Shown here in pieces: positions 4,294 to 57,566 of a stretch of DNA of 64,000 nucleotides. This stretch comes from Chlorobiota bacterium (GTDB taxonomy: Bacteria > Bacteroidota > Ignavibacteria > OLB7), in the NCBI GenBank assembly GCA_016710285.1, contig JADJXR010000001.1, forward strand, positions 2,911,942-2,975,941. The letters are read 5' to 3'. Position 1 is the stretch's first letter; every line of letters starts with the position of its first letter. The notes under the pieces were generated by a model that ran no database searches, had not been told where the DNA came from, and worked only from the letters and a program-made list of their open reading frames with translations. Both the position numbers and the translations under genes were made by a program.

Positions 4294-4532
4294 CACCAGA
4301 GCGCGACCAGTACGAACACGGGCAATCAACCGTAGCTCTTTTTCAGCAAGTTCCCATAATGGTCTAGAAACGGAAGACGGGCGGCTTCCCGCAAGGGGGT
4401 CGCCCTCTTTCGTGAACAACCAAGAAACAATTGCAAGATGTGCAGTGCTTGGCAAAGGGACACTGGTCGGTGTATCTTTGCCGTCCTTATTCTGCACACA
4501 GCTTTAACAACCGACGTAGACCGGAGGCAGCC

Positions 4533-4703
4533 ATGGCAAAAACGCAAACGTTCCAAGATAAGAACAAGAAGAAAGGCGCATCGGACAAGATTTCCGTGAA
4601 AATCGTCACGATGAACAAGTCCAATCGGGGCACTTACACCTTTGGCGAGCGATTCATCCAGGTGAAGGACCTTGCCGAAGTTGAGAAAGCAGTGAAAGGC
4701 TAA
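4533..4703 (+). CDS. small basic DUF4295-like protein
   Basis: The ATG at 4533 within ORF 4431..4703 gives MAKTQTFQDKNKKKGA...VKIVTMNKSNRGTYTFGERF. This resembles the DUF4295 proteins that sit beside ribosomal protein genes in FCB-group genomes. Confidence 0.55.
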   Translation: MAKTQTFQDKNKKKGASDKISVKIVTMNKSNRGTYTFGERFIQVKDLAEVEKAVKG

Positions 4704-4732
4704 TCACTTTTTTTGAAAGGGGCTGAACCATA

Positions 4733-4963
4733 ATGAAAGAGAAAATTCATCCGACCTATGTTGCCGCGCAGGTAAGCTGCGTTTGCGGAGCCGTGTTTGT
4801 TACCCGTTCCACCATTGGCAACATCAAGCTAGAAATCTGCTCCGAGTGCCACCCGTTCTTCACCGGGCGCCAGAAGATGATTGATACCGCCGGACGCATT
4901 GACCGCTTCAACCAGCGGTTCCAACGCTCCAAAGATATCCGCGCTTCCAAGCAGAACTCGTAA
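4733..4963 (+). CDS. rpmE: 50S ribosomal protein L31
   Basis: MKEKIHPTY...[28 protein letters not shown] is the canonical L31 sequence with a Cys motif. Confidence 0.95.
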
Positions 4964-5007
4964 ACCAGCGATACGAACAACTCAGAACTTCCATATTTCA
5001 GGCTACC

Positions 5008-5295
5008 GTGAATCCACGTAATAATCGTCGCGATCAAAACAACCTTCCCGATGGTGCGCTTCGCCAGCAAAAACGTGCCGAGCCGCCGCGCCGCCGCCGG
5101 AACCCGCTGAAGGGGATCGAGTACATTGACTACACGAACACCAAGCTGCTGCTTCGCTTCACCAACGACCAAGGGAAAATCCTCCCGAAGCGTATCACCG
5201 GGCTTACCGCAACGCAGCAGCGCGCATTAACCCGCGCCGTGAAGTACGCACGCCACCTTGCCCTGCTTCCGTTCGTCACCGACGACGCTCGCTAA
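5008..5295 (+). CDS. rpsR: 30S ribosomal protein S18
   Basis: GTG start. IDYTNTKLLLRFTNDQGKILPKRITGLTATQQRALTRAVKYARHLALLPF is the canonical S18 core. Confidence 0.93.
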   Translation: MNPRNNRRDQNNLPDGALRQQKRAEPPRRRRNPLKGIEYIDYTNTKLLLRFTNDQGKILPKRITGLTATQQRALTRAVKYARHLALLPFVTDDAR

Positions 5296-5358
5296 GCCAA
5301 GATGTGCGCCAAAACAGCGTAGCCTGAAAAGTTTTTCGCAGGTTATTGAGCTTCATTG

Positions 5359-5398
5359 CAAGCCGCAGGATCATCGTCTCCTGCGGCTTGTCTCGTTT
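5359..5398 (+). terminator. rho-independent terminator after rpsR
   Basis: Perfect 12-bp stem caagccgcagga / tcctgcggcttg with an 8-nt loop, followed by tctcgtttct. Confidence 0.65.
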
Positions 5399-5481
5399 CT
5401 GGTCCTTGCTGCGGAACGGCGGCCAATTCCGTGCTATCTTCCCAGCCAATTCCTCTCCCGTTTGCAATCGTCTGGCGTCCC

Positions 5482-8400
5482 ATGTCCATTCCTTCTGCTG
5501 CCATTCCTTCCATTGATCGCTTCGTTCGCAGCGGCGCGCTTCCGTTTGTGGGGCGCGTGGCGGAGCTTGAGCAGATTTCCCAACTATGGAGCCATGCCGA
5601 GCCGGCCACGCTGCGAGCAATGCTGGTTGTTGGCGAAGCGGGGAGCGGAAAAAGCCGCCTTGTTGAGGAAGCAATTCGGCGCATTGCCGCTGCCGATGGC
5701 GCGGTGGTTCACGCAAGGCTCCGCCCGGAAGAATCTGCCTCGATTGGGCCGGTGCTGGCCCTGGCAATGTGGGGGTCGGAATCGGCTGGGGGGCTGCTGA
5801 AGCAGGAGCCGGAAGGGACAATCCCCGCCGCCGCCGCCGCGCTGCAACGGATTGCCGGATTGCGGCGCACCTTGCTGGTGATTGAAGATATCCATCTGCT
5901 GCAGGGGGCCACGCTTCGCGAGTTCGCAATGCTGCTTGATTCCCTTGCCGACGACTCTCTGGCCTTGCTCTGCACGTCGCGCCCTGCGGACCTTGAAGCA
6001 CGCCAACCGTTGCAGCCCTTTCTTCAAAAGGAGGTTGCCCTTGCTGGATTGGAAGGCGAAGCCCTTTCCGAACTTTGGGATCAACTGTTCGGCGGCAATG
6101 CCGACCCGCAAGCCTTGCGGTCCATGGAGCGGGCAACGCTGGGCAATCCGCTGGCGTTCCGCTCGGCACTTCGCGGTGCAATCAACACCGGGGCAATGCG
6201 GATGGACGAACGCACGAACGCCTGGCGCGTTAGCCTTGCTCCGGCAGCCTTTGCCGAAGTGGTGGAGCGGACCGCCCAGCGAATCTCCGAAGGGATGATT
6301 GCCCACCTTTCCGATGAAGAGCTTCACGCCGCACAGCTGCTTGCGGTTTTGGGCGAGTCGTTCTCCTTCGAGGCCGCCACGCTGCTGCTTCCCAATGTTG
6401 GCCCAATGGTGGAGCAACTGATGGAGCAAGGGGTGATTGTTCGCCCGCACACAGCTTCCCACACGTTGAACGGTGTGGCAAGCGCGCAGCCTCCGTTCGC
6501 GTTTGTTCATACCCTGCTTCACCGTTCGTTGTGGGAGCGGGCCGCGCCGCCGTTCCGGAGCATTGTTGCGTTGCTTACCGATTCCCCGCCCCTCTTTTCG
6601 GTGCGCCCGTTCCAGCTGCTGGCCGAGCGTGCGCTGCCCCAGCCGTTACCGCAATCGCTGGCCGAGCGTGCGATTGCCGCTTTGCTGCCGGCAGCTTCCG
6701 CGCTGGACCATTCTGCCGATTGGCCCTATGCCCTAACCATCTATCATGCCTGCGAAGCCATTTACCAAGCGGTGGATGGATGGGAAAACCGCACCGACCA
6801 ACACCGTGTTCGGATTGAACTGCTGATGCGTGGCGTAAACCAGCTTCGCACCCGTAACGCGCCGGAGGCCTATGCCGGAATGATTGATGAGATCATGGAG
6901 ATTTCGGCAACGCTTCTTGATGATGGCTATCCAACGGCGCGGATGTACGCCTTCCCATTCCAGCAAGAATATCTGTGGCGCTGCCAGGGTCCCGCCTATC
7001 TGAACGTTTGGGATCAGGTCCAGGAGCTTTGCCGCAGCCACCCCGAGGTCCGGTATGATTTCCCGTATCTAGAGTTCCTGGGCCAGGCGATGCACTTCGC
7101 GATTATCGAGCCAGACCTTGAGCGGATGGGGATTATTGAGCAGGAGATTGACGAGCTGATGGCCAGCGAACAGGCCACCGAGCCGTTCAAGAACCATGCG
7201 CTGCTTCACGTTGCGCGTTACCTGATCCTGAAGTTCGACACCCTTGAGGAACTGGCGCGGCGGCAGCGGCTGCGCCAGCAGCTTGACGCGCTGGATGATG
7301 GCGATTTGCGCAACCGCCCGTGGGTTCTGGAATTCCTGTTCACCACCGGCGCCCCCTCCGAAACAATCGCCCAGTCCGACCGCCTGGTCCGCTACTTCCG
7401 CGACGCTGCCTACTGGCAAAGTTTCTATTCCGCCATGCTGCTGAAGCTGGCTTCGCTGGCGTTGATGGGGGCTGCGGCAACGGAACTTCAATCGCTGCTT
7501 GCGGCGTTGCCGAACTGGGGGAATTTGGACCAGGAATTGCACGGACTTGTTGCCCGCCGCTGCTGGGATATCTGCCTTGCGCTGGCCTTGCGGTTTGACA
7601 TTGAAGGGGCAATGGAAATGGCGGCATTCTTCCAGCTTGAGCTTGGCGATGCACCCCTTTCGCAAAGGCTTTTCTGGCAACGCTGCGCCGCTTCCGGTGG
7701 TGAGGTTCCTGATGAATTCATGGAGGAGGGGGGGGAGGAGCATCCATTGTTGAGGTTGTGGAAAGCCAGCACGCTTCCGGTGGAGCCAGCCACGATGGAG
7801 ATGGAAGTGGAGATGAAAATGGAGATGGCGCGGGAGCTTCTGCATCGGCCAATCCTTCGCATCTACGACCTTGCCGACCGCTACACCTTCCTGGCCATTG
7901 CGCAGCAAGCCGAGCAGGAAGGGAATCCGTGGGCCGCCACCAAGGCTGCCGAAGCCTTGCGGCAAATGGGAATACGGAGCTTGGTCGAGTGGTTTGTGGA
8001 GCATGGAATCCACACGCCGATTGAGCCGTTGTTGGACCGCTACGGCAGCCACCTTCCCAAAGAAGAAGCCACCCGATGGTTGCGCGCCGGGCGGGCAATG
8101 GCAAAAAATGCCGAAGGCAATCAACCCACGGCCACCCCTCCCGAGCCGGCCTTGCGGGTTGGAATGTTTGGCAAGATTACAACCCAACCACGCGGAGCCG
8201 CCGAGCCAAGCCGGCTGCGTGGTGCCAGGAACCAAGCCCTGCTGGGGCTGCTGGTTGCCGATGCGATGCTGCGCGAGCCGTTGGAGAGGATTGATTTTTG
8301 CCGGCTTGCAACCAACGATTCCGAGGACCCCGACCGCGCACGCCGCTCGATGAACGTTGCGGTGCTTCGCCTGCGCGAGGCGATTGGGACGGAGATGATC

Positions 8401-23248: not shown

Positions 23249-26054
23249 CTTGGCTGGTGGCCAGCGTGCGGGTTCCGGCTTCGCCAATCAGGTTCAACGT
23301 CACAACGTCGCCGTTGGAAAGGGTCAAGTTCAGCTGGGCGTTGCGTGGGCCTGGCTGGCTTGCTGGTGCTGGGTTGTGAACAATGGCGAAGTGCATGGCT
23401 GCACCCGGCATCACTGCAAACGGCACGGCTGGCCACGGCTTCGCTGGATCCATCGTGAACTCCGCTGCATCGGTTCCCACAATCTCAATCTTGTTCACAA
23501 AGATCAATTCCTGCGTGGTGTTCTCCACCATCGCGCTTGCTGCCGAGTGGTCCGCGGTTGCGCCGCCAATCACTGCCGGGGCAAACATCACGTCGCGTGG
23601 CTCAAGCCCAACGGTTCCAACGCCGGTAACATCCCAGTAGTAGCTTCCCCGTTCGGTTAGCCCAGGAAGGATGATCGTGGAATCGTTGGTCCTTAGCTCA
23701 ATCGTTGCGCGGCGCGATCCGCTGCGCGATGGCGTGAACTCTAACGTGACGGTGGTGCTGTCGCCCGGGGCCATCATGTAGGTTCCGGTGTTTCCGTCCA
23801 GCGTAAGGTTGCTGAAGGCATCAACAATCTTGAACTCCTTCACGTCGCCCGAACCAATACGGAAGCGGTTTTTGTCAATCCGAAGGTCGCAGGCACCTGG
23901 GTTGTAAAGCGTGACGGTCATCATGCGGCTGGTGCGGACTGCGGTGTTCGCGAACTTCACCGGCTTCGGAAGCTGGCCACCTTCCACACGGTCGCTGATG
24001 CTGGATCCCAAACCACGACCGAACAGATCAAACGTGAGCAATCCATCTTCGGTGTAACCCGTGACCGGATTGATCCCGGTGAAGTTTGCGCCGTTGGTTG
24101 GCAGGTAGATGCGGGCAAACCGCTTGCCTGGTTCCTGTGCCACAAAGTTCACGTAAATCGTCCGCGAGCCTTTCTCCGGAACGGAGATCGGGTAATCTTG
24201 GAAGCCGTTTGCCGGAACCGGAGCAACGCCTGGTTCGGTGCTGATGAAGTAATCAACCGATGGAATCGGCATCCAGTTCTCATCCATCAGCAGCGGATAG
24301 GCTGGGTTCCCTTGCCCGTAAATCGAATCGGTTCGATAGACCATGGATCCCAAAATCTGGAACTCCCCTTCGCCAACATTCACCACGTTGATCGGGTAGC
24401 TTTGGATATACTCCCCGGCGCAAATGAAATCTTTGTTGAAGACATCTTCATTTGGACCCAGCTTGCGGCTGCCCAAGTAGAATTCACCACCGGCAGCGGC
24501 GGAGAAGGCGTAGAGAACGTACGTCCGGATTTCCCCTTCGGCATTCACCGTCAAGGTTGCCCGCTGCGGACCAACGCCTTTTGGCGAGAAGCGGATTGCC
24601 GGGGTTGTGGAACCCAAAGCCGTTAGCCCGGTGCTGTAAGTGTTCACCAACTGGCCGTTGTCTGGGTTGACGATTTTGTACTGGTTGGTTGGGTCGTTCA
24701 GCACGAAGCTGGTTGGTGCGCTCGGGGCCTTGCCGTTGTTGTTGGTGTTGCTCACCGTCAGCGGCATGAAGTCTTGCCACGCAAGGCGGGTCACTTTGAT
24801 GCCGTTGATAAGCGTGTCGCCGCTGGCAACGGAAGCTGTTCCGCCGCTGGCAACGTTGCCAATGTAGATCAACCGCCGTGTGGCTTCGGCTTCAAGAGTG
24901 TAGCTGCGGCTGAAACCGTTGTCGTCGGTGACTTGCAGCGTGGCGGTGCGGATGCCAATCGCCGTTGGAGCAAAGGTCACCGTTGGTGTCACCTTGCTGT
25001 CGGCACCGATCTTCCCGCTAGTTGGCGAAATAATGAAATCGCCTGGGTTCGCTCCGCTGATGCTGAAGGTGTAGCCGCGTGCCGAGCAAGGATCGGGATC
25101 CAAATAGATGGTGAATGGCTGGTAGCCCTGCGAGGTCCACACCTGAATCTTCGTTCCGCTCAACAGCTTGTCGCCGTCGGCCATCACCGTGGTCCCACCC
25201 TGGGCAGGGTCGCCACTGATCTGGATGTTGCAAGGGTTGAAGATGTAGAGGGTGCCGTAGCTAATGGGAGTGTCGAATAAATAGATGTCGTTGTTCGCAG
25301 TGCTGGTGCTAGTCGTAGCTCCTGTGATTCCTTGAAAACCACCTCCTGATGCTTTAGCCTCACTCCCTCCGCTTTCAGAGCCAGGGGTAACGCTGATAAA
25401 ATCGGAAGAGCTTGCGGCAATGCCGATGGATGCGGAATTGGAATAGTAATCACCATACACGTTGGAGTAGGTGCTCATATCTCCATACCAGAGTTCAACC
25501 CTGTTGGATCCTTCATATAAGCGAACTTGGAAGGACCCGTACACGTAATCGTAGTATGAAAGCTCAATGGATTGGAAGTCAATAACCAAAACGCGATTTG
25601 GGGCAGTGCCGTTGATGAAATACGAGACAGACCCTGAAACTTCATCATCAAAATCATCGCCTGGAACGCGAAGATCGTTCCAGAACGGAGCAATCTGAGG
25701 TGTTGTTCCTAATGAGTAGTTTCCGCTTGTAGCTGTTAGGTTGTTGACATAGTAGCCAGTCACGTTCGTTGAGCCAAGCCCAATCACACCATTGGAGCTT
25801 ACGGAGAATCGTGTGTACGGCTTGTTATCGAAGTAGAAGGTGAACGCCGGTTGGCCTTTTGCAACCGATGGAGTAAAGGCGGCGACATCGTCATCGGCCC
25901 CGACGCTGAGTATCTCGGTGGGCTTTCCCTCTGGTGAAATTGGATCACCGTAGGTGTCCAAGAATTGGTAGTTGGAGACGTTGCCGTAGGATAAGCCCAT
26001 CGGCAGCATCAGTGCTAGGGCTACCCCCAGCAAAAGTCTGTACAGGTGTCTCAT
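22629..26054 (-). CDS. giant secreted surface protein, paralog of 18997..22332 (NIDO-like N-domain, Ig-like repeats, T9SS CTD)
   Basis: 1141 aa with a signal peptide. N-domain motifs FSVSSNGVIGLGS, IAPFWNDLRV and FQVRLYEGSNRVELWYG. The last approx. 215 aa are nearly identical to the paralog. Confidence 0.8.
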   Translation of the reverse strand: MRHLYRLLLGVALALMLPMGLSYGNVSNYQFLDTYGDPISPEGKPTEILSVGADDDVAAFTPSVAKGQPAFTFYFDNKPYTRFSVSSNGVIGLGSTNVTGYYVNNLTATSGNYSLGTTPQIAPFWNDLRVPGDDFDDEVSGSVSYFINGTAPNRVLVIDFQSIELSYYDYVYGSFQVRLYEGSNRVELWYGDMSTYSNVYGDYYSNSASIGIAASSSDFISVTPGSESGGSEAKASGGGFQGITGATTSTSTANNDIYLFDTPISYGTLYIFNPCNIQISGDPAQGGTTVMADGDKLLSGTKIQVWTSQGYQPFTIYLDPDPCSARGYTFSISGANPGDFIISPTSGKIGADSKVTPTVTFAPTAIGIRTATLQVTDDNGFSRSYTLEAEATRRLIYIGNVASGGTASVASGDTLINGIKVTRLAWQDFMPLTVSNTNNNGKAPSAPTSFVLNDPTNQYKIVNPDNGQLVNTYSTGLTALGSTTPAIRFSPKGVGPQRATLTVNAEGEIRTYVLYAFSAAAGGEFYLGSRKLGPNEDVFNKDFICAGEYIQSYPINVVNVGEGEFQILGSMVYRTDSIYGQGNPAYPLLMDENWMPIPSVDYFISTEPGVAPVPANGFQDYPISVPEKGSRTIYVNFVAQEPGKRFARIYLPTNGANFTGINPVTGYTEDGLLTFDLFGRGLGSSISDRVEGGQLPKPVKFANTAVRTSRMMTVTLYNPGACDLRIDKNRFRIGSGDVKEFKIVDAFSNLTLDGNTGTYMMAPGDSTTVTLEFTPSRSGSRRATIELRTNDSTIILPGLTERGSYYWDVTGVGTVGLEPRDVMFAPAVIGGATADHSAASAMVENTTQELIFVNKIEIVGTDAAEFTMDPAKPWPAVPFAVMPGAAMHFAIVHNPAPASQPGPRNAQLNLTLSNGDVVTLNLIGEAGTRTLATSQASLFDNVTIPVGKVARQTVMITNNGTMPIKLGTTTITGATSTDYTLGRLPRTSLAPGQSEFLEVTYRPLNQGTSSATLTINSNATNGALTVQLGGTATRIQPGTGESNGTSSVDATFGANGTTLWQTAPNPGRDLVTLAYRLANAGNVSVKLYNEQGQEVLTLDEGARAAGDHSVSFSVGELSSGSYHYRLSVNGQTIIRSMVVAK

Positions 26055-45639: not shown

Positions 45640-47790
45640 TTAATTCACCCCAATCCCCCGGTCCTTCGCGGTTGTGCTGGCGGTGGGGTTCACTGGCGTT
45701 TCCACGATTACCGTGACGGTCCGGCAGTAGTAGCGGCCTTCGGGCAACTCGTTGTCGTACAGAAGGTCCTTTTCCCCCCGCCCAATCGTTTCCTTCACCG
45801 GAATCCCCAACGCCTCCGCGGCAGCGTCGGCGCGGCGTTGCGAAAGGGCTTTGTTGTACGGCGGAAGCCCAATCCGGTCCGTGTGGCCAATCACCCGCAC
45901 CACCGATTGCGGCGTTATCCGATCCTGCATGATCGCCGTTGCTTGGCGGCTGAAATCTTGGATGTCCTGCTGGTCGAACCCGAACAACAGCAGGGTGTAG
46001 GTGTCAACATACTTCCCATCAATCACCTCCCGCTCCTCCTCGTATTCCTCCTCCTGAACAATCACCACCCGCTTGCTCTGCTCGCGCTCCATCACGTTGT
46101 CCATCGAGTCGCGGATGGTGAGCTTGCTGGAGATTTTCACCGTGTCGGTAAGGTTCAGCCCCGGGCGGCGTTCAACCTCGAAGTCAATCTGCTTCGGGGG
46201 CGTTCCGTAGCCGGACTTAGCATCGGTAATCACCGAATCCCCAACGGTGACATCCAAGGACCAAGCGTTCAATTCCTTGGTCGAGTCTGGCTCGCCGCCG
46301 GTGGTTGGAAGGAACCGGATCAGCCCGGCGGTTCCCAGCGTTGCGGTGTCGGGCAAGCGAACCGGGGCAAGGAGCGAAAGGTCCTTTGCGTAAATCTCCA
46401 CCCGTTGGTTTTCGCGCGCGCCCTCGGCGGTGTCAACTTCGCTGAGCGACGGGTTGGCCGGAAGCCCCCGCACCGCAAGCTCCACCCGGTTTGCGCGGAT
46501 GCGCCACGTGTTGATGATGTAATCGCGCACCGCTTCGGCACGGCGGCGGGCAAGCGTGGTGTCGGTCTCGAATTGGCTTAGGCATCCCGTCACGGTGATG
46601 GTCGCCCTGCTGTTGCGGCGCAACCGCTGGCCAATAATGTTGAGCAGTTGATGATAGACCCCGATGGTGTTGCCACGTGGCAGCCGCTCAATCTCAAAAT
46701 TTTTCACCGACTTTTTATCCAGTTGCTTGTAGCGTGCCGGTATCACCGCGCTGTCGCGTTCGAAGAAAACGTAGGGGAGCAGCGCGTGGAATTCGGTTGA
46801 TTGAATTTTCCGTTTGCTGAGGATGACGGTATCCTTCAACCCCTCCGGCGTGACGGCTCCGGCCTCGAACAACGTGTCGGGAATGGCAGCGGGGTCGGTT
46901 CCTCCTTTCTTGCTGGTGTCTGGCTTCCGTGCGATTGGCGGGGAAGGAGGGATCACCTGGTACCAATCCCCCCCGATCGCGTAGCGGAAACCAATCGTCC
47001 CGCTGAAGTTCGTCGCCTTCCACTCCTCCCCCGAACGGAGGTTGTTCGTGATGTTATCGAACACCGGGGAGTATTGGACCTCAAGGAAGAATTTGAATTG
47101 CTCCGATAACGGGATGTTGATCCCCGTCGCCACCGTCACCCCAAACACCGATTGCTGCCCGGTGATTTCGCCATCATCCAGCGTGCGGGCCGTTTGGCTG
47201 TTCAGGCGGAACTGGGCGTTGGCGGGGTCAGTGATTTTTTCGGTGTAGTTGTAGGACCCATTCAGCGGAAGAAGAATCGTTGGGCCAACCTCGAAATACA
47301 AGGGGAATCCAACCGGGCCAAAATAGAGATACGGGGTGGCGTTCAGCACCCCGTAGGAGTTCACCACGGTTCCTTCAACGTCGGCAGGGATGGTTGCGCC
47401 GGTTGGTCCTTTCACCTCCGTTTCGTTGCGGTAGTTTTTCACCAAATCCGCCCCGCGCGACTCGTATCCGGCGCGAAGTCCAAGCGCGAAAACGCGATCC
47501 AGGGGAACCTCGAACAACAGCCCGATTGCCCCCCCAATCCCGTAGCCTTCGGTGAAGATGCTGGAGGTTGGGGCGGTGCGCCGGCTGGCGGCGAAATAGT
47601 CGGGTTGGATCAGCCCGCTTTGCGTCACCCCGGCAAGGCTGCCGTACGCGCCAACGTAAAAATCGGGGACAAGCCAACGTTCCGCGCTGTCCTGCTCCGA
47701 TTGCTCTTGCGCCCATGCCGCGTGCGGCGGCAGCAGCAGCCAGCAGCAAAGGAAAAGCAATGGAGGAAACAGGAATCGGATGGCGCGCAT
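45640..47790 (-). CDS. OmpA-family outer membrane protein, paralog of 26643..28754
   Basis: ATG at 47790 (MRAIRFLFPPLLFLCCWLLLPPHAAWAQE). Same architecture as the paralog. ENQRVEIYAK in the first OmpA-like domain. C-terminus LYDNELPEGRYYCRTVTVIVE. Confidence 0.8.
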   Translation of the reverse strand: MRAIRFLFPPLLFLCCWLLLPPHAAWAQEQSEQDSAERWLVPDFYVGAYGSLAGVTQSGLIQPDYFAASRRTAPTSSIFTEGYGIGGAIGLLFEVPLDRVFALGLRAGYESRGADLVKNYRNETEVKGPTGATIPADVEGTVVNSYGVLNATPYLYFGPVGFPLYFEVGPTILLPLNGSYNYTEKITDPANAQFRLNSQTARTLDDGEITGQQSVFGVTVATGINIPLSEQFKFFLEVQYSPVFDNITNNLRSGEEWKATNFSGTIGFRYAIGGDWYQVIPPSPPIARKPDTSKKGGTDPAAIPDTLFEAGAVTPEGLKDTVILSKRKIQSTEFHALLPYVFFERDSAVIPARYKQLDKKSVKNFEIERLPRGNTIGVYHQLLNIIGQRLRRNSRATITVTGCLSQFETDTTLARRRAEAVRDYIINTWRIRANRVELAVRGLPANPSLSEVDTAEGARENQRVEIYAKDLSLLAPVRLPDTATLGTAGLIRFLPTTGGEPDSTKELNAWSLDVTVGDSVITDAKSGYGTPPKQIDFEVERRPGLNLTDTVKISSKLTIRDSMDNVMEREQSKRVVIVQEEEYEEEREVIDGKYVDTYTLLLFGFDQQDIQDFSRQATAIMQDRITPQSVVRVIGHTDRIGLPPYNKALSQRRADAAAEALGIPVKETIGRGEKDLLYDNELPEGRYYCRTVTVIVETPVNPTASTTAKDRGIGVN

Positions 47791-48013
47791 CGGATTGGCG
47801 TGGGCAACAAGGATTTGAGTTGAAAAGCGATTCAGCATCAGAACAGTACTTCTGTGAATGATTCTTGGTATCGCAACAACGGGAAGGCTTCGGCCAGAGT
47901 TAGTTCCGATCACCAGAAAACAACGCCTTAAAGATAGCACCACATCCCCGCCGAAAAAGGGGAAAGAACGTCCTGCAACGGAAATCGAAAGGGACCCAGC
48001 GGGCGACCCGCGC

Positions 48014-48817
48014 CTACTGGAACCGCTCAATCACGTGTTGCAGCCACAGCTTCCGGGCGTGCTGAAGGAACTGGTCCGGCGCGTTCTGGAAGTCGCGAGC
48101 GTTCGCGTATTTGCCATCCATCTTCCAATACTCTCCGTTGGTTTCAATGGCGGTTTGGTCAAGGTCATCAAGGCAGCAGATGTCGGATTCGGTGGGGAGC
48201 GGGCGGTTGTTCGTGGCTTCGTCGCTTAGGCCGGAGTAATCAATAAACATGATTCCCCGCAGCGCGAACTTCCGGTTGTTTTCGTGCATCAGCAGCTTCA
48301 TGCTGGCCGGCGAGACATCGCTGCGGCAGGCAAGTTTGTAGAGGATCGTGGTCTCGGTGATGCCATTGTTGTCCAGATCGGTAACGGTTGGGCGGCCCAG
48401 AAACTGCAGGGTGATGTCGAACTCGCAATGGCGGATCGCGTCGGCAATGTCCCACAGCACCGCCCAGCCGGTGTCGCGGCGAACGTACTGTTTGGCAATC
48501 AGCTGGCTGCTTTGGCCCAGCATCCCATCGCGGTCGGGAAGTTTCTCATCGTAGGGTGGAACCAGCGACTCCACCAGCAGGTTCTGGCCGTTCGCGTCCT
48601 CCCACCGCAACCCCAACTGCGCCCGCCCCCGCACCGCAATTTCCGCCGGAAGCTCCGATGGCTTCAGCGTATCAACATCCAACGGTTTGGGCACGTTCGG
48701 TTTTGGTGTGGTTGCGGTCTGTTCCGCCGGCGGCTGTTTCCCTGCCTCCTCGGTCTGCGGTTGGGACGAGCAAGCGATGAGAAGCGAAAGCATCAGGCAG
48801 GCAAGGAAGGTTTTCAT
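48014..48817 (-). CDS. hypothetical lipoprotein
   Basis: ATG at 48817 gives MKTFLACLMLSLLIACSSQ (lipobox L-I-A-C). I recognise no family. Confidence 0.6.
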   Translation of the reverse strand: MKTFLACLMLSLLIACSSQPQTEEAGKQPPAEQTATTPKPNVPKPLDVDTLKPSELPAEIAVRGRAQLGLRWEDANGQNLLVESLVPPYDEKLPDRDGMLGQSSQLIAKQYVRRDTGWAVLWDIADAIRHCEFDITLQFLGRPTVTDLDNNGITETTILYKLACRSDVSPASMKLLMHENNRKFALRGIMFIDYSGLSDEATNNRPLPTESDICCLDDLDQTAIETNGEYWKMDGKYANARDFQNAPDQFLQHARKLWLQHVIERFQ

Positions 48818-49066
48818 GGAGAAATAGAGTTGTGTGATTTCAGCACTCTGCAGCCAAACTGGCAAGGATGAAATTGCGAAGAATTGGTGTGATGGAAGCG
48901 GGGGCTTGGAGTGTTGAAACAGAGATGGGGAAAAGGTGAGAGTTTCTTGCCGCACAACTTCCCCCCGCTGTTTCCTCTCGTGACTACTCCCTTCGCGGTT
49001 GGGTGAGTAATTTTGTGCGGTTTTCTGCATGGAATTTCACTAACAACTCAGTCCAATCTACGGCTC

Positions 49067-51958
49067 ATGTCAACGACCGTCAACGACCTTGATCTTCGCT
49101 ACACCGACGACTTCATCCCCCGCCATATCGGCCCAAACGACGACGAAACCGCGCTGATGCTTGCCGCATTAGGCCACTCAACGCTTGATGAACTGATTGA
49201 AGCCACCATCCCTGCCGACATCCGGTTGCGCCAGCCGCTTCCGATCCAAGATGGAAAAAGTGAGTACGAGATGCTGGCCGAGCTTCGCGCTATCTCCAAA
49301 AAAAACCAGGTCTATCGCTCCTACCTCGGCATGGGGTACTACGACACCATCACCCCGGGGGTGATCCAGCGGAACATCCTGGAAAACCCAGGGTGGTACA
49401 CCCAGTACACCCCCTACCAAGCGGAGATTGCGCAGGGCCGTTTGGAGGCGTTGCTCAATTTCCAAACAATGGTGATTGACCTTACCGGACTGCCGATTGC
49501 CAACGCTTCGCTGCTGGACGAAGCCACCGCCGCTGCCGAGGCAATGCACCTTAGCTACGCAGCCCATAAAAATCCCGAAGCCAACGCCTTTTTTGTCAGC
49601 GAAGAATGCTTCCCGCAGACGATTGAGGTAATCCGCACCCGCGCGCTGATGCAGGGGATTGACGTGGTTGTTGGGGACCACCGCACCTTCGACTTCAGCA
49701 CCCCGGTGTTTGGCGTGCTGGTCCAATATCCCGCTGCCGATGGGGCCGTGCATGATTATCGCGACTTCATCGCCCGCGCCCACCAGCATGGCGCAACCGT
49801 GGCAATGGCTGCCGACCTTCTTTCCCTTGCACTGCTGACACCCCCGGGTGAGCTGGGGGCCGACATCGCAATCGGGACCACGCAGCGGTTTGGTGTGCCG
49901 CTTGGATTTGGCGGACCGCACGCCGCGTTTTTTGCCACCCGCGATGAGTTCAAACGGATTATCCCGGGCCGCATCATCGGCGTTTCGGTGGATGCCCAGG
50001 GGAAACCCGCGTTGCGGATGGCGTTGCAAACCCGCGAGCAGCATATCCGCCGCGAGAAAGCAACCAGCAACATCTGCACGGCCCAAGTGCTGCTGGCGGT
50101 GATTGCCGGGATGTACGCCGTCTATCACGGCCCCCATGGAATCCGCCGCATTGCCCACCGGGTCCACAAGTTGGCGGCGGTGCTGGCCGCGGGCCTAGGG
50201 CGGTTAGGGTTCAGCATCCAACACAACATCTACTTCGACACGATCAGGGTGAACGTCCCGGAGGGGAAGGCAAACCAAATTCTGCTGCTTGCACGCGAGC
50301 GGAAGATCAACCTGCGGAAACTGGATGCCTGCTCAATCGGCATTGCCCTTGATGAGACCGTCCAGATCAAGGACCTGCTGGACCTGTTGGCGGTGTTCAA
50401 CAACGGCCTTCCGGTAACGTTCGGAATGGATGACCTTGCCGGCGAGGCATCAGTTGGCTACGGGGCGGAGTTCGCACGCACCAGCCCGTACCTTACTCAC
50501 CCGGTCTTCAACAAACATCACAGCGAGCATGAGATGCTCCGCTACATGCGGATGCTGGAGTCGCGGGACCTTTCGCTGACCCACTCCATGATCCCCCTTG
50601 GCTCCTGCACGATGAAGCTGAACGCCACCAGCGAGATGTTCCCGGTGACGTGGGCGGAGTTCGGGAAGATCCACCCGTTTGCCCCAAGCGAGCAGACGGA
50701 GGGATACCACACCCTGTTCAGCACGCTGGAGGAAGCGTTGGAGAATATCACCGGATTCGCGAAAGTCTCCTTGCAGCCGAACGCAGGCTCGCAGGGTGAG
50801 TACGCCGGGTTGCTGGTGATTATGGCGTATCATCGCGCCCGTGGCGAATCGCACCGGAACGTCTGCATCATCCCGCAGTCGGCACACGGGACCAACCCCG
50901 CCAGCGCGGTGATGGCCGGCATGAAAGTGGTGGTGGTTGCCACCGCCCCCAACGGCAACATTGACATTGCCGACCTGAAGAAAAAAGCCGAGGAGCACAA
51001 GGATAACCTTGCTGCGTTGATGGTGACCTACCCCAGCACACACGGGGTGTTCGAGGAAGGGATTCGGGAGATTTGCGAAACCATCCACACCCACGGCGGC
51101 CAGGTGTACATGGACGGCGCGAACATGAACGCACAAGTTGGGCTAACCAGCCCGGCGACAATCGGCGCGGACGTGTGCCACCTGAACCTCCATAAAACAT
51201 TCTGCATTCCGCACGGTGGCGGCGGGCCGGGGATGGGGCCGATTGGCGTTGCGGCGCACCTTGCTCCGTTTTTGCCCGGGCATCCGGTGGTGAAGATTGG
51301 GGGGGACCAAGCAATCGGTCCGGTGTCGGCTGCGCCGTGGGGAAGTGCCAGCATCCTTCCAATCAGCTGGATGTACATTTTTATGATGGGGGGTGCGGGG
51401 CTTACCCACGCCACCAAAATCGCAATCCTGAACGCCAACTACGTGGCCAAGCGGCTGGAAGAACACTACCCCGTTCTCTACAAAGGAACCAACGGCACGG
51501 TTGCCCACGAGTGCATTCTGGACCTGCGCCACTTGAAGGCTTCCAGCGGTGTGGAAGTTGAGGATGTGGCGAAGCGATTGATGGATTACGGGTTCCACGC
51601 CCCAACCGTCAGCTTCCCCGTTGCCGGAACGCTGATGGTGGAGCCAACCGAAAGCGAGACGTTGGACGAGTTGGACCGGTTCTGCGAGGCGATGATCGCC
51701 ATTCGCCAGGAGATTCGTGAGATTGAGGAGGGAGCCGCCGACAAAGCCGACAACCTGCTGAAGAACGCGCCCCACACCGCCGAAGTGGTAATGGCCGACG
51801 ACTGGAACCGCCCGTACACCCGCCAGCGTGCGGCGTATCCGGCGCAGTGGGTGCGCCACAGCAAGTTCTGGCCCTCGGTCGGTCGCGTCAACAACGCCGC
51901 CGGGGACCGCACGCTTATCTGTGCCTGCCCGCCGATTGAGGAGTATATGGAGGCGTGA
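49067..51958 (+). CDS. gcvP: glycine dehydrogenase (aminomethyl-transferring), single-chain P protein
   Basis: ATG at 49067. [27 protein letters not shown], and the [22 protein letters not shown]-Lys region. Confidence 0.96.
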
Positions 51959-52053
51959 AAGAGGGAGGGGGGAGAAGGTTGAAGATGAGTTCCGTTGTGC
52001 GGTTCACTGAATAACGGCCTTCGCTCATTCTGAACTTCGTGACGAGAATACCG

Positions 52054-52100
52054 AAGGAGGCGTTCCAATTTTGCAGAAGTGCTTTGCGGAACGCCTCCTT
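52054..52100 (+). terminator. terminator candidate after gcvP, at the left edge of the AT-rich islet
   Basis: 13-bp stem aaggaggcgttcc / ggaacgcctcctt with a 21-nt loop, then tgtcgcagtttt. Confidence 0.5.
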
Positions 52101-52202
52101 TGTCGCAGTTTTGGGTTCCTTTGTTCACCTTGAGGTGGCGGGTTGATAGGAAGCATTGCTTGCCGTTAAAGTATTTGGCAATTTTTCAAAGTAGAGTCGT
52201 CT

Positions 52203-53045
52203 ATGTGGTCGCCAACAACGTTCAGGCGTTATGTTCGCACAATTGAATCAAGCTCACGCCCAGCATATATTGACACTGATGCGGGGCCAGCATACTTAAA
52301 AGCGGCGAATAATCCAGAAGGGCCGCATATCCTTGCCTGTGATTGGTTCGGGACGCGCTTAGCGCAGAAATTTCATCTTCCGACGTTAGAAGTAGCGATA
52401 CTGCCATTAACGAGCCTTGATGAAATTCCAATTGGCAAGGGAATAATTGCCTCACCAGAGCCAGCATTCGTTAGCCGTGCTGAACAAGGGGCAACGATGG
52501 GAGGTAGTGGTACATTAGAGTATGTTGAGAATCTGGACGATATTCCCCGAATTGTTGTTTTTGATACGTGGGTGCGCAACTGCGATCGGTATTGCCCAAC
52601 TGACACGCCCAACGGCAAGCCGCGAATCAACGTAGATAATGTTTTTCTTTCGGTGGAGGGGGCAACACAGGGCAAATTTATTTTGAAGCCAATTGATCAT
52701 GGCCACATTTTTTCCTGTGGCAAGCAATTAACACCGAAATTGTCGAATATCTCAAATGTGCAAGAACGAAAGCTCTATGGATTATTTCCGGAATTCCGCA
52801 AGTATGTCACAATTGAGAGCCTTCATGCAATCGTAGATGAGCTTGCCGATATTCGGCCAACGTTGTGGGAAGACTTGCTCCATGATTTACCAGATGCATG
52901 GCATATTACAGATGAAATCCGAGCAGCGATTAATTCTTTTTTGATTGATCGCGCACAGTTTTTGTCAAACAATCTTCGTGAAATTGCTTACAACGAACTG
53001 CACCCCGGAAAAATAGATTTTGACGCAAATCAAACGCAACCATGA
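52203..53045 (+). CDS. HipA-like kinase-fold protein (putative toxin component)
   Basis: 280 aa in a low-GC islet. VVFDTWVRNCDRY...NVDNVFL resembles the HipA-type catalytic loop (N.D.H..N), and KPIDHGHIF is a plausible metal-binding Asp segment. The stop overlaps the next start (ATGA). Confidence 0.6.
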   Translation: MWSPTTFRRYVRTIESSSRPAYIDTDAGPAYLKAANNPEGPHILACDWFGTRLAQKFHLPTLEVAILPLTSLDEIPIGKGIIASPEPAFVSRAEQGATMGGSGTLEYVENLDDIPRIVVFDTWVRNCDRYCPTDTPNGKPRINVDNVFLSVEGATQGKFILKPIDHGHIFSCGKQLTPKLSNISNVQERKLYGLFPEFRKYVTIESLHAIVDELADIRPTLWEDLLHDLPDAWHITDEIRAAINSFLIDRAQFLSNNLREIAYNELHPGKIDFDANQTQP

Positions 53046-53854
53046 ACACAGATATGCAACCGGCAAAAGGTTATTACTCCATCGTTCAGTACGTGCCTGA
53101 CGTTGAGCGTACTGAGGGGGCCAACATCGGTATCGTACTCTTTTGTCCTGATAAACATTTTCTGCAAGCAAAGCTATCACCTAATAACAATCGCGTCAAT
53201 CGGTTCTTTGGCTCTAAGCCAGATAGCAATCTTGATGGAACAAGAATCAAGACGCTGAAAATGGCGTTTCAAGAGCGTATGGTCTTCGAGAAAGAGCGCA
53301 TTAAAACCCAAGAAGATTTCCGATTATTTGGTGCTTCACGTGGCAATCATTTGCTTCTGACAGAACCACGGCCAATTAAAGTCCTTAATCCCGAAGAAGA
53401 ATTGAATCAGCTATTCAATCGTCTTGTTGGCAGTAATTCTCATAGAAAACAGAATGATGACACGAAGCATCTAATAAAAGAGATTGATAAGCAATTCGAA
53501 TCGGAAATAAGCAAGCAAGGGATCGCGCAGTTAATTAAAAAGAATGTTCTTCTGGAACTTCCACTTCTTAAACGAGCTGAGGTGTTCCCCTTCAGCTTTC
53601 AAAATGGACAGCAAAATGTGATTAAAACTTTTGCCATCCGAAGCAATGACCAGAAAAATACCAATCAGGCTTGCGTAGTTGCTATGGAGGGGAAGGCTCT
53701 TGCTGATATTAATGTGAAATTGAACGTGCTGGCAAAATATGATGCTGTTGAAGATGATCACGTCCCAAATATCTTTGCGTCAATGGATATCCCAGTCCAT
53801 ACAGTGGACCGCATTGAGGAATTTGTACTAGAGATTAAAAAATTCGCTCATTGA
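53042..53854 (+). CDS. DUF3037-like protein (putative partner / antitoxin or effector)
   Basis: 270 aa. The N-terminus YYSIVQYVPDVERTEGANIGIVLFCPD matches my recollection of the DUF3037 signature (Y.vlryvPd..r.E.vNiGvvl). Translationally coupled to the kinase-like gene. Confidence 0.6.
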   Translation: MNTDMQPAKGYYSIVQYVPDVERTEGANIGIVLFCPDKHFLQAKLSPNNNRVNRFFGSKPDSNLDGTRIKTLKMAFQERMVFEKERIKTQEDFRLFGASRGNHLLLTEPRPIKVLNPEEELNQLFNRLVGSNSHRKQNDDTKHLIKEIDKQFESEISKQGIAQLIKKNVLLELPLLKRAEVFPFSFQNGQQNVIKTFAIRSNDQKNTNQACVVAMEGKALADINVKLNVLAKYDAVEDDHVPNIFASMDIPVHTVDRIEEFVLEIKKFAH

Positions 53855-53877
53855 GTAGCGCACTTTACGCAAAAATC

Positions 53878-53916
53878 AACAGAGCGGGGCGACTACAATA
53901 GCCGCCCCGCTCTGTT
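53878..53916. terminator. bidirectional terminator at the right edge of the AT-rich islet
   Basis: 14-bp stem aacagagcggggcg / cgccccgctctgtt. atttct follows on the + side and gatttttg follows on the - side. It lies between convergent genes. Confidence 0.7.
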
Positions 53917-53941
53917 ATTTCTGATCTCTCGCCTGTTATTC

Positions 53942-54823: not shown

Positions 54824-56482
54824 ATGAACGATTCCCCACGCCGTGTTGGCGGCTATGAACTGTTGGAACTGCTTGGCTCCGGAGGGATGAGCCAGGTCTA
54901 TCGCGCCCGCCGGATTGACGACGGGGAGGTGGTTGCCCTGAAGGCAATTCGGATGGAGGATGTGGAGGCCGAACACGAACGCCGCCTGCGCCGCGAACCC
55001 GAGGTCCAGCAAGGGGCGGGGCACGCCAACATCGTGAAGATGCACGATTGGTTCCGCGAGCACGACACGTTCTATCTGGTGATGGAGTATGTGGCCGGGC
55101 GTTCCCTTGCGCAGGTGATCTACAAGGAATCGGGACCGCTTCCGTTCGAGCGTGCGCGTGGGTATCTGCGCCAGGCGTTGGCGGGGCTGGCGCATCTTCA
55201 CTCCCTGGGGATTATCCACCGTGACATCAAACCTTCCAACCTGATAGTGGGGTGGGACGACACGGTGAAACTTGCCGATTTCGGCATCGCGAAATTTGCC
55301 TGGCAGCAGGGGGAAACCCGCACCCAAAAAGGGTTGGGAACCCCCGAGTATATGTCGCCCGAGCAAGTCCGCGGGGCGCAGATTGACCACCGCACCGACC
55401 TCTATTCGCTGGGCATCACCTTCTTCGAAATGCTGACCGCACGCAAGCCGTTTGCGCGTGGCCAGGAAACCCCCATCGGCTATGCTGAAGTGATCCAGGG
55501 GGTGCTGACCGCCCAGCTTCCCGACCCGCGAACGTTCCAACCAACGCTGCCCCCCACCGTTGTCCGGCTGCTGAATCGCGCAACCGCAAAGGACCCTGCC
55601 GAACGGTTCCAAACCGCAGGGGAGTTTGCAAGCGCGTTGGAGATGGTGGAGGCCGCCCCGGAGGCCGCCGCTGGAGCTCCATTCCACGATCCCGCGCCAA
55701 CAGTGGTGGCCGGCGCGATGCCGCAAACTCCATCGTTATCTCCATCCTCGCCGCCGCCGCAAGCCCCATCACCACAGCCGAACCCTGTGCCTCCGGCAGC
55801 GCAGCCGGTTCAGGAGCGGATGCCCAGCAATGCTCCGCTTTGGATTATTCTGGCAGCCATTATTCTGGGGGTGGGTGGGTATTTCGGGATGCGGTGGTAT
55901 AAGGAGAGCCAGAATCTTCTGCCGGTTTCCGTTGGGCTTACCGATGCGGGGGCGTTGGACCTCTCAAAAAAAATCGCCGTTGATTACCAGATGTTCTCCC
56001 GCAACCAAAACGCCGGCGCGCTTGCCTCGCTCTATGCCGAGCAGGGGGTGGAGTACTTCCGCCTGAAGCGAGCCTCACGCAAGGTTATCGAGAACGATAT
56101 GGATGATTTTTTCAGCCGGATTGTTGCCACGCCACGGTTCGACATCACGGTGAAAAACGCCAAAGCCCAGAACGACAGCACCATCGCCACCGAGTGGTGG
56201 ATTGCCTACGAACGGCAGCGCGACGACCAAACCTTGCTGCGCGGGCAAACCAGCAACCTGCTGACAATCCAGCGGAACGGCGGGGAGTGGCTGATCGTTC
56301 GCCAATCGCAAAAGTGGATAAAGCGGGATGACGTTGCTCCCCCCGCCGACACGCCCGAAGTGAAGGACATCATCCATCCCCCCGCCGACACCGTGACGAG
56401 CGCGCCGCCAACGGTTCCCGATACCGCGTCGTCGCCAAACAATCCGTCGTCGCCCCAATCACAAGTCCGTCGCCAGCCGTAG
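54824..56482 (+). CDS. Hanks-type serine/threonine protein kinase with TM segment and extracytoplasmic NTF2/SnoaL-like domain
   Basis: GSGGMSQVYRA, VALK, HRDIKPSNL, DFG, GTPEYMSPE. A Pro-rich linker is followed by the TM segment LWIILAAIILGVGGYFG. Confidence 0.9.
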   Translation: MNDSPRRVGGYELLELLGSGGMSQVYRARRIDDGEVVALKAIRMEDVEAEHERRLRREPEVQQGAGHANIVKMHDWFREHDTFYLVMEYVAGRSLAQVIYKESGPLPFERARGYLRQALAGLAHLHSLGIIHRDIKPSNLIVGWDDTVKLADFGIAKFAWQQGETRTQKGLGTPEYMSPEQVRGAQIDHRTDLYSLGITFFEMLTARKPFARGQETPIGYAEVIQGVLTAQLPDPRTFQPTLPPTVVRLLNRATAKDPAERFQTAGEFASALEMVEAAPEAAAGAPFHDPAPTVVAGAMPQTPSLSPSSPPPQAPSPQPNPVPPAAQPVQERMPSNAPLWIILAAIILGVGGYFGMRWYKESQNLLPVSVGLTDAGALDLSKKIAVDYQMFSRNQNAGALASLYAEQGVEYFRLKRASRKVIENDMDDFFSRIVATPRFDITVKNAKAQNDSTIATEWWIAYERQRDDQTLLRGQTSNLLTIQRNGGEWLIVRQSQKWIKRDDVAPPADTPEVKDIIHPPADTVTSAPPTVPDTASSPNNPSSPQSQVRRQP

Positions 56483-56483
56483 C

Positions 56484-57566
56484 ATGAGCCTGCCCAACCC
56501 ACCCAACACCAACGCCCCGGTCCGCATTGCCACGCGGACCGATGTCGGGCTGCGCCGGATGCAGAACGAGGATTCGCTGGGAACGCTTCCCCTTCCCAAC
56601 GGCCACGCGCTGGTGGTGTGCGATGGAATGGGGGGTCACGAAGGTGGGGCCGAAGCAAGCAACATTGCCGTCACGGCCTTCCTGTCGGAACTGAGCAACG
56701 CAGCTCCGTCCGTGGCCGATGCCGCAGCAATGGAGCAAGGGGTGAAGATTGCCAACCAGGAAATTTTCCAAGCTGCGCGCAAGCGTGGGGAGGGGGTGGT
56801 GATGGGGACCACGTTGGTGGGGGGGATAATCGCGGCGCGCGGCACGGGGGCAGGGGAAACTTCGCTGACACTATCGGTGGTGAACGTGGGGGATAGCCGG
56901 GCGTATCTGTTCAGGGACCAGCGGTTGCAGCAGATCACCAAGGATCATTCCCATGTGGCGCACCTTCTTTCCATTGGGGCAATCACCCCGGCACAAGCGG
57001 CCAATTTTCCCGGGCGGAACGTTGTCACCCGGGCACTTGGTTCGGAGCCTTCGGTGCGGCCCGATCTGTTCCAGCTTCCGCTGCAGCGGGGTGATCTTCT
57101 CCTGCTTTGCAGCGACGGGCTTCACTCGGAAATCAGCGATGAACGAATCGCGGAAATCTTGCGAAGCAATCCCCAATTAGAAACCGCGTGCGACGCGCTG
57201 GTGGTTGCTGCGCTGGCCGCCGGCGGGCGCGATAACATCACCGTGATCCTTGCACGGATGGAGGAAGGGGCTGCGGTGGACGCTGCAACCGCCGCCAACA
57301 CCCTGGAGCTTGCCTCCACCGCTGTGAAAGAAAAATCGGACCCGAAAAAAAGTGCGTGGCTGCGGGCAATGCTGGTAAGCACCGTTGCCGCCGTGGCGAT
57401 GATTGCGGCCTGGCTTGTGCTTCTTTGCCCCGCGCCCTGTTCCGCTCCGGCAGCAATGGGTCCCAGCGATTCCGGCAGCGCGCAACCGGCCATCAACCCC
57501 GCGCAACCGGTTGACTCGGCACCGGCGCAACGCACCCCGGGCGAGGGGTTGTACGAGGTTCCATAA
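56484..57566 (+). CDS. PP2C-family serine/threonine phosphatase (Stp-like) with C-terminal TM anchor
   Basis: [43 protein letters not shown]. Begins 1 nt after the kinase stop. Confidence 0.88.

Follow-up and report, generated by a model that had tools for sequence, protein, structure and literature searches.

What is an AT-rich islet of two genes, foreign in composition to everything around it, doing between two housekeeping genes of an uncultured bacterium? The islet in question sits in the gap that separates gcvP from a convergent O-methyltransferase gene in a 64,000-nucleotide stretch (hereafter the window, whose coordinates are used throughout) of contig JADJXR010000001.1 from a Chlorobiota bacterium (GenBank assembly GCA_016710285.1). 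A sequence-only reading had proposed that a kinase toxin and its DUF3037 partner were acquired horizontally as one module, a noncanonical toxin-antitoxin (TA) or abortive-infection system, and evidence from protein families, a PADLOC candidate system of matching composition, gene co-occurrence, and base composition supports that proposal. Judged by sequence comparison, the pair is a distant member of a HipA_2/DUF3037 system that has already been described and tested. We therefore favor, with a probability of roughly 0.75, the interpretation that the islet is a chromosomal HipA_2-kinase/DUF3037 system that serves as a TA-like abortive-infection module against phages.

Exactly two credible open reading frames (ORFs), both on the plus strand, occupy the islet, and because the end of ORF1 overlaps the start of ORF2 as ATGA, translational coupling is implied (Table 1). 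In a Pfam search, ORF1 matched HipA_2 (PF20613; 33.3 bits against a cut-off of 27, E = 3.8e-8, residues 19 to 249) and, at E ≤ 1, nothing else, including HipA_C (PF07804) and HipA_N. The earlier call of a HipA-like kinase thus stands at the level of HipA_2, while the family that it had named, HipA_C, was not matched. PF20613 is carried by all 120 of the homologues listed except five shorter, fragmentary sequences. ORF1 also matched phrog_3162 (E = 1.6e-20) and contains the three motifs quoted in the sequence-only reading (FDTWVRNCDRY, NVDNVFL, and KPIDHGH). An alignment of 46 homologues revealed invariant residues at T25, D26, K33, D121-T122-W123, C127-D128-R129, N146, and D165. A search of Protein Data Bank (PDB) chains with the sequence profile of ORF1 returned no match. 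The AlphaFold2 model of ORF1 has a kinase fold, with a predicted local distance difference test score (pLDDT) of 94 and a predicted template-modeling score (pTM) of 0.92. Its nearest solved folds were those of actin-fragmin kinase, PI4KII-alpha, CotH, and CtkA, with template-modeling scores (TM) of up to 0.59 (0.58 for CtkA), and HipA followed at 0.40 to 0.48 (structures 3dnt, 3dnv, and 2wiu).

The partner, ORF2, had been recognized as DUF3037-like from its opening motif, YYSIVQYVPDVERTEGANIGIVLF, which is present, and the Pfam search confirmed the assignment with a match to the full DUF3037 profile (PF11236, profile positions 1 to 118; 70.4 bits, cut-off 22.6, E = 1.9e-19). The protein also matched phrog_5137 (E = 4.8e-22). 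Its AlphaFold2 model (pLDDT 86, pTM 0.51) fits two domains and can be divided into the DUF3037 domain (residues 8 to 128), a long linker helix (133 to 159), and a C-terminal domain (C-domain; 166 to 268). Within the subfamily, the DUF3037 domain is the best conserved, with a mean identity of 55% to the window protein; the mean for the C-domain is 34%, and that for the linker is only 15%. Searched against the PDB with a sequence profile, ORF2 gave only insignificant matches to Csm3 (E = 0.3). Using Foldseek, we found weak matches to PDB folds of Cdn1, Can2, Card1, VC1899, and AF1548 (E = 2e-3 to 2e-2), together with two full-length viral look-alikes in BFVD (E = 3e-11 and 7e-10) and further BFVD matches to a DUF1828 protein (5e-5), restriction endonucleases, Cas4, and DUF2726 proteins. 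Because its topology fits, we attribute the nuclease-fold matches to the C-domain of the model, the aligned residues not being reported by the tool. The invariant residues of this domain are P183, N188, G189, E216, L220, L227, and V229. The D...(D/E)xK motif is not conserved there, and strands 2 and 3 carry no conserved Asp or Lys, so the C-domain is best read as a putative noncatalytic binding module. When the C-domain was used as the query against 1.84 billion proteins, only 22 representatives were recovered. Each was the C-terminus of a DUF3037 protein of about 265 to 290 amino acids or a fragment, apart from one compositional artefact. That protein (P0152; 3,722 amino acids) had been a candidate for the C-domain in another architecture and was rejected as a Ser/Asp/Glu-rich repeat protein with no Pfam match.

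The pairing itself is not new, having been characterized both as DS-6, or "HipAD," and within the Retron-Sda1 operon. HipA-like kinase genes are strongly associated with DUF3037 genes, and PADLOC labels the pair PDC-M66 (PMC12548924, PLoS Biol 2025). In the Retron-Sda1 operon, deletion of HipA abolished defense against phage Bas51 and removal of the DUF3037 gene had a toxic effect, while the RT (reverse transcriptase), ncRNA (noncoding RNA), and helix-turn-helix (HTH) components were dispensable (PMC12548924). DS-6 was validated in Escherichia coli and renamed "HipAD" (DefensePredictor, Science 2026, PMC13092281), in a paper that credits an independent discovery to Brenes and Laub (2025, Cell Host Microbe 33:1004). 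Of its two proteins, DS-6A is a HipA-related kinase and DS-6B combines DUF3037 with a DUF1829-like C-terminus, the DUF1829 assignment having an HHpred probability of only 78% (PMC13092281). AlphaFold3 predicted an interaction between DS-6A and DS-6B, with an interface pTM of 0.76 to 0.79, and one with DNA that was weaker. Defense was abolished when a key residue of DS-6, predicted to be catalytic, was mutated, and the strain table lists D139A (PMC13092281).

We compared the window pair with the DS-6 kinase (WP_000389051.1) and its DUF3037 protein (WP_000210934.1). ORF1 shares 26% identity with DS-6A over 133 residues (E = 7e-5), with a profile alignment that spans residues 15 to 248 (E = 4.5e-6), and ORF2 shares 27% identity with DS-6B over 150 residues (E = 8e-13; hhalign probability 97.5%). 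In both BLASTP and hhalign, D128 of ORF1 falls opposite D139 of DS-6A. This alignment backs from outside the prediction that D128 is the catalytic-loop Asp. The other assignments draw on the kinases with similar folds, by analogy with which K33 would be the ATP-binding lysine, and N146 and D165 (in IDHG) would be the metal ligands; all four residues are intact in ORF1. The likeness extends to layout. Like the window pair, DS-6 joins the HipA_2 and DUF3037 families with the kinase first and the partner second, its genes (2415-3164 and 1591-2418) overlap by the same 4 bp at stop and start, its partner is a two-domain protein with an N-terminal DUF3037, and neither locus has a HipB or HipS gene. 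The sizes are 249 and 275 amino acids for DS-6 and 280 and 270 for the window pair. Differences include the host, which is E. coli for DS-6 and a Chlorobiota/Kapaibacteria-like bacterium for the window, and the insert between the predicted catalytic Asp and the downstream Asn, which is longer in ORF1 than in DS-6A. Both Pfam families, the predicted catalytic Asp, the gene order, and the stop/start overlap that define the system are found in the window pair. The sole defining feature missing was a match in sequence between the C-domain of the partner and DS-6B, a feature that defines the family only weakly. DUF1829 was also considered for ORF2 and dismissed, since none of 18 subfamily members matched it.

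PADLOC had been suggested as a check on the islet, and its database does hold a candidate system whose two components are precisely these families. In a search with the models alone, PDC-M66A matched ORF1 (E = 9.5e-4, 16.4 bits), PDC-M66B matched ORF2 (E = 7.8e-13), and no other PADLOC-DB model matched either protein. The DS-6 proteins scored E = 6e-15 and 3.8e-16 on the same two models, and PDC-M66B, which covers the full length of DS-6B, covers residues 11 to 169 of ORF2, the N-terminal 60%. The HipA/DUF3037 pair of Retron-Sda1 is likewise a stand-alone two-gene defense unit. Beside the pair, its operon also encodes an RT, the ncRNA of the retron, and an HTH protein, none of which occurs at the window islet. 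The C-terminus of the Retron-Sda1 DUF3037 protein reportedly resembles an accessory protein of type III-A1 retrons, given as a DNA-binding protein in the text and as a phosphoribosyltransferase (PRTase) effector in a figure legend (PMC12548924), and this resemblance, too, is absent at the window islet. Because deletion of the Retron-Sda1 kinase ends defense and deletion of its DUF3037 gene is toxic, ORF1 is the presumed toxin and ORF2 the presumed antitoxin.

The window pair is neither canonical HipBA nor HipBST, since it lacks HipA_C, HipB, and HipS. What these systems share is a broad kinase fold and the principle of a growth-arresting kinase restrained by a co-encoded protein, and KINtaro places PF07804 and PF20613 in a single kinase family. 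In contrast to HipA, with about 440 amino acids, ORF1 has 280 and is without HipA_C and HipA_N. Canonical HipBA has a HipB-type HTH gene upstream; in the window, gcvP lies upstream of the kinase gene and the partner gene lies downstream. The 244-nt stretch upstream of ORF1, which includes the leader, contains no plausible ORF and no HTH gene. HipBST has a separate HipS-like gene, while the islet has two genes only, the second matching DUF3037 and nothing else. The sequence-only reading had noted that HipB-type HTH, HipS-like, integrase, and transposase genes are all missing, and we found none of them at the islet. In a survey of HipA homologues (Gerdes et al. 2021), a DUF3037 partner is not mentioned.

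To what extent does the pairing hold beyond this genome? A metagenome scan yielded 80 loci encoding relatives of ORF1 at 37 to 65% identity. Among the 70 loci with at least 150 nt past the kinase gene, an ORF2-type gene lay directly downstream on the same strand in 69, the single exception being a fragmentary kinase match. Wherever the contig reached far enough, the partner match spanned full ORF2, including the C-terminal domain. The commonest junction between kinase and partner genes was -4 nt (17 of 58 loci), with most others between 3 and 28 nt; the handful of strongly negative values are spurious, a product of how start codons were chosen. Co-occurrence, which had been proposed as a check on the reading, is thus near-obligate in a large environmental clade.

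Some of these relatives have defense-type neighbors, and the pair is often embedded behind restriction-modification (R-M) operons. An MmeI-type R-M enzyme (1840-5103) and a PLD/SNF2 helicase lie upstream in locus L009, a type I HsdS gene lies directly upstream of the pair in L136 (2-1366) and L130 (1394-2626), and an Eco57I-family methylase does so in L062 (1-1374). RadC is found near the pair in L075, and RT and ParA-like genes in L141. At four further loci (L114, L080, L076, and L086), the upstream gene has an HsdS-like C-terminus of the "...AFKGEL" type and no Pfam match. In one subclade, a small DUF2513 gene (L103, 3609-3971; Pfam E = 5e-25) ends directly upstream of the HipA_2 gene, and a DUF2513-type C-terminal motif likewise occurs just upstream of the kinase gene in L112, L113, and L126. 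Such a protein could add a third member to the module, one resembling a regulator, much as the Retron-Sda1 operon has its HTH gene; the window islet has no DUF2513 gene. Meanwhile, a plasmid of Alisedimentitalea scapharcae (L143, NZ_CP123585.1) carries a gene annotated "HipA family kinase" (3971-5407) with 33% identity to ORF1 over query residues 2 to 207 only. An IS6 transposase gene follows it immediately, in place of a DUF3037 gene, so that the module seems to have been disrupted in this copy.

The composition of the islet is that of a horizontally acquired cassette. The sequence-only reading had described it as AT-rich, and the profile of GC content and codon usage that it called for deviates sharply. 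GC content of the ORF pair is 0.433, compared with a mean of 0.589 ± 0.020 in other equal-sized windows (z = -7.6), among which the minimum is 0.512, so that the pair is the lowest-GC stretch of the 64 kb. At third codon positions, GC content is 0.40 to 0.41 in the pair, whereas gcvP reaches 0.77 and the methyltransferase gene 0.69. The two hairpins said to bracket the islet, at 52054-52100 and 53878-53916, are both strong. The upstream one has a perfect 13-nt core (inverted repeat I3, 100% complementary) and 15 pairs in the fold, with a folding free energy (dG) of -30.8 kcal/mol (z = -5.8) that none of 200 shuffles equaled. It was not called by a simple terminator scan; probably it terminates gcvP transcription and at the same time marks where the islet begins on its 5' side. 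The downstream one has an 18-nt stem, for which the terminator scan gave 19 pairs, 11 of them G-C, and a dG of -32 kcal/mol on the plus strand and -39 kcal/mol on the minus strand (z about -9 for either). T-runs flank it left and right, and it is therefore a bidirectional terminator.

The closest relatives of the window are metagenome-assembled genomes (MAGs) of Chlorobiota/Kapaibacteria-like bacteria, and among them the site between gcvP and the methyltransferase gene occurs in three states. The window allele is shared by L001 to L006, and both frames are intact in the strain variants L001 and L002. A divergent AT-rich allele occupies the site in L007 and L008, where identity to the window proteins is 65 to 67% for the kinase and 57% for the partner. 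L012 instead has an ORF of 110 amino acids there, AT-rich as well but unrelated and with no Pfam match. The flanking genes in genomes showing the other states are 92 to 93% (gcvP) and 88% (methyltransferase) identical to those of the window, and homology with L007 and L012 breaks off just past the stop codon of gcvP, to return only at that of the methyltransferase gene. In more distant relatives, the two flanking genes are no longer adjacent. Since what relatives have at this site is either a diverged form of the pair or a small gene unrelated to it, the gcvP/methyltransferase interval is a cargo hotspot, in which cargo probably turns over by homologous recombination through the conserved flanks. 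Direct repeats of 10 to 11 nt flanking the islet (D4 and D8) were considered as target-site duplications and rejected as chance level, since 2.3 kb should contain some 2.5 exact 10-mer repeats anyway. The L012 genome is a Chlorobiota MAG (gcvP 92.7%, methyltransferase 88% identical), and its cargo ORF (MKTKIMYIEHKGGNLTGEARIGKVNF...; GC 0.33 to 0.40) runs from 7990 to 8322 on the minus strand of the locus, in the orientation of gcvP. The contig of L007 and L011 (GCA_020850315.1, JADZEY010000017.1) belongs to a MAG labeled Armatimonadota, yet its gcvP (92%) and methyltransferase gene (88%) are as close as those of Chlorobiota MAGs; probably the contig was mis-binned or the label is wrong.

Selection on the two genes could be estimated against L001, a strain variant 97% identical to the window. 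The ratio of nonsynonymous to synonymous substitution rates (dN/dS) was 0.036 for ORF1 and 0.18 for ORF2, and both genes are therefore under purifying selection. The kinase gene (52203-53042) had a dS of 0.131 compared with 0.028 for the adjacent gcvP (49067-51955), a roughly 4.7-fold excess that could come from weaker codon constraint or from recombination of the cassette. In L002, whose source called a 182-amino-acid product, the kinase was considered as a pseudogene and the idea discarded: the full frame of 280 amino acids is intact, and merely another start had been chosen.

We propose the following mechanism. A single transcript would begin in the leader, which we take as the likely operon promoter and which contains one sigma-70-like match (52143-52172), and would end at the downstream terminator. 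Coupling through ATGA would keep ORF1 and ORF2 in fixed proportion, and ORF2 would bind the small kinase and hold it inactive. Phage infection may then perturb ORF2, which could sense it through the variable linker and the C-domain with its putative endonuclease fold; alternatively, ORF2 may become depleted once host gene expression shuts down. The freed kinase, acting through K33, D128, N146, and D165, would phosphorylate an essential host or phage protein, and both growth and phage production would stop. By analogy with homologues at 26 to 27% identity, defense in the native host would require the kinase, and loss of the DUF3037 protein would be toxic. The cassette would have been gained horizontally at the gcvP/O-methyltransferase hotspot of a Chlorobiota/Kapaibacteria-like genome. 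As a tentative extension, the window clade may form a distinct HipA_2/DUF3037 subtype whose sensor is a different one, recognizing for example a protein or the DNA of a phage, and which seems to be exchanged at the gcvP/methyltransferase hotspot as a cassette without a recombinase. This proposal draws on the fast-evolving linker and on a C-domain that appears to have an endonuclease fold, looks catalytically dead, occurs only in this architecture, and is unrelated in sequence to the C-terminus of DS-6B.

Several observations weigh against assigning the islet to the anti-phage system. The validated relatives share only about one-quarter of their residues with the window pair. On HipA_2, DS-6A scores 258 bits and ORF1 scores 33, and on PDC-M66A the scores are 53 and 16.4 bits; given these low scores, ORF1 is a distant HipA_2 branch, which PADLOC might not call. 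Furthermore, the C-domain of ORF2 has no sequence similarity to the C-terminus of DS-6B (hhalign probability 0.6%), and whatever does the sensing or regulation may thus not be the same as in DS-6. The two C-domains may nonetheless share a fold, as suggested by the matches of the modeled ORF2 domain to viral DUF1828 and endonuclease-fold proteins. On most long contigs, the pair is surrounded by ordinary metabolic genes rather than defense islands. No phage relative of ORF1 was found by tblastn against 50,697 phage records or by a pattern scan of IMG/VR, and a phage origin was set aside on the same searches, PHROG matches notwithstanding. Lastly, no common inverted repeat or motif was detected in the 160 nt upstream of the kinase gene across 73 loci, and with no conserved upstream operator, HipB-like autoregulation is unsupported. 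A palindrome-like motif, TAGnAAGCAnnGCTTGC, is common to the leaders of the window and L007; it was considered as an operator and rejected because it is absent from the upstream stretches of the other loci.

An alternative is a plain addiction-type TA cassette, a selfish cargo that moves between genomes, is kept since its loss kills, and gives its host no meaningful protection from phages. The pair is mostly a lone two-gene cassette amid ordinary genes, its hotspot holds interchangeable cargo, and toxicity after loss of DUF3037 is what an addiction module would show as well (PMC12548924). One plasmid copy has also decayed, with IS6 replacing the partner gene and the kinase cut short. We still regard pure addiction as improbable, given that two independent homologues confer kinase-dependent phage protection on E. 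coli, that several relatives sit directly behind R-M genes, and that the islet is chromosomal and flanked by housekeeping genes, with no mobile element to stabilize. Addiction and defense are not mutually exclusive roles. The roles might instead be reversed, with ORF2 a nuclease effector acting through its C-domain and the kinase a sensor or regulator that switches it on. The alpha-beta-beta-beta-alpha-beta topology of the C-domain would suit such an effector, as would the weak matches of its fold with Can2, Card1, Cdn1, AF1548, and viral proteins that are restriction-endonuclease-like. Yet those PDB matches have E values of 2e-3 or worse, and the invariant residues are P183, N188, G189, and E216 in place of a conserved D...(D/E)xK. 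In Sda1, moreover, it is the DUF3037 deletion that is toxic and the kinase deletion that merely ends defense, the opposite of what reversed roles predict. The genetics of the homologues and the missing nuclease motif thus argue against this arrangement, which we consider very unlikely.

Even less probable is a kinase with an accessory subunit that serves normal physiology, perhaps linked to the nearby eukaryotic-type Ser/Thr kinase (eSTK) and PP2C genes. Such a link is suggested by the Hanks-type kinase and PP2C phosphatase just downstream, and in L140 and L087 the upstream neighbor of the pair is also a Pkinase gene. However, a relative with flanking genes 92% identical has other cargo instead of the pair, and this presence/absence polymorphism argues against a housekeeping function. 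The composition of the pair is foreign, its neighbors across phyla differ at every locus except for the partner gene, and eSTK/PP2C genes are kept beside the methyltransferase gene in relatives that had no HipA_2/DUF3037 match in the fetched loci. The least credible explanation is that a prophage or mobile element left the pair behind as a decaying, nonfunctional remnant. PHROG families are matched by both proteins and no mobility genes are left nearby, as a remnant would have it, whereas both frames are intact here and in L001 and L002, all predicted catalytic residues are kept, no phage genes flank the pair, and a phage relative was not found. The dN/dS values argue against decay.

If the islet is indeed a HipA_2/DUF3037 defense system, it adds a chromosomal example whose host lineage is uncultured, Chlorobiota/Kapaibacteria-like, and distant from the E. 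coli and Retron-Sda1 systems that were tested. Its clade is marginal on the current PADLOC kinase model, and surveys therefore probably under-count it. The C-terminal half of the partner is the variable part and a natural place to seek the trigger; for the trigger and the kinase target alike, the window locus offers no better hold than the E. coli system. What novelty remains lies in a distant environmental branch, barely detected by the PADLOC kinase model, with a distinct C-terminal module in its partner.

Table 1. Coordinates of the two-gene islet, its predicted functional parts, and its borders in the window
Feature	Coordinates	Strand	Description
Variable interval, cargo hotspot housing the islet	51959..53941	.	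gcvP stop to stop of the convergent O-methyltransferase gene
Upstream hairpin	52052..52102	+	15-bp stem, then T-rich tract
Operon leader, presumed to hold the promoter	52103..52202	+	Gene-free; sigma-70-like match
ORF1	52203..53045	+	280 aa, HipA_2-family Ser/Thr-kinase-like protein, presumed toxin/effector
ORF1 K33	52299..52301	+	Predicted key residue
ORF1 D128 (NCDR)	52584..52586	+	Predicted key residue
ORF1 N146	52638..52640	+	Predicted key residue
ORF1 D165 (IDHG)	52695..52697	+	Predicted key residue
ATGA stop/start overlap of ORF1 and ORF2	53042..53045	+	Translational coupling implied
ORF2	53042..53854	+	270 aa, two-domain partner, presumed antitoxin/sensor
DUF3037 domain of ORF2	53075..53428	+	aa 12-129; Pfam match; most conserved part of ORF2
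C-terminal domain of ORF2	53537..53845	+	aa 166-268; beta-beta-beta-alpha-beta-alpha-beta-alpha topology (AlphaFold2 model), putative restriction-endonuclease-like fold
Downstream hairpin, bidirectional intrinsic terminator	53877..53917	.	Common to the operon and the convergent methyltransferase gene

Other features of the window lie outside the islet. The Hanks-type Ser/Thr kinase (552 amino acids) and PP2C phosphatase (360 amino acids) are encoded at 54824-57566, just past the methyltransferase gene, with the PP2C start codon one base after the kinase stop codon. The Hanks-type kinase gene adjoins the methyltransferase gene in all of the more distant Kapaibacteria-like relatives (L013 to L027) and is part of the core genome. 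Between an OmpA-family gene (45640-48030) and gcvP, an ORF of 338 amino acids on the minus strand (48014-49030) had no Pfam match at E ≤ 0.01. The only other 500-bp window with a GC content below 0.48 in the 64 kb is at 25301-25800 (0.476). Far from the islet, at 4209-4294, a tRNA-Leu (CAA) gene is the sole tRNA and the sole gathering-level Rfam match in the window.

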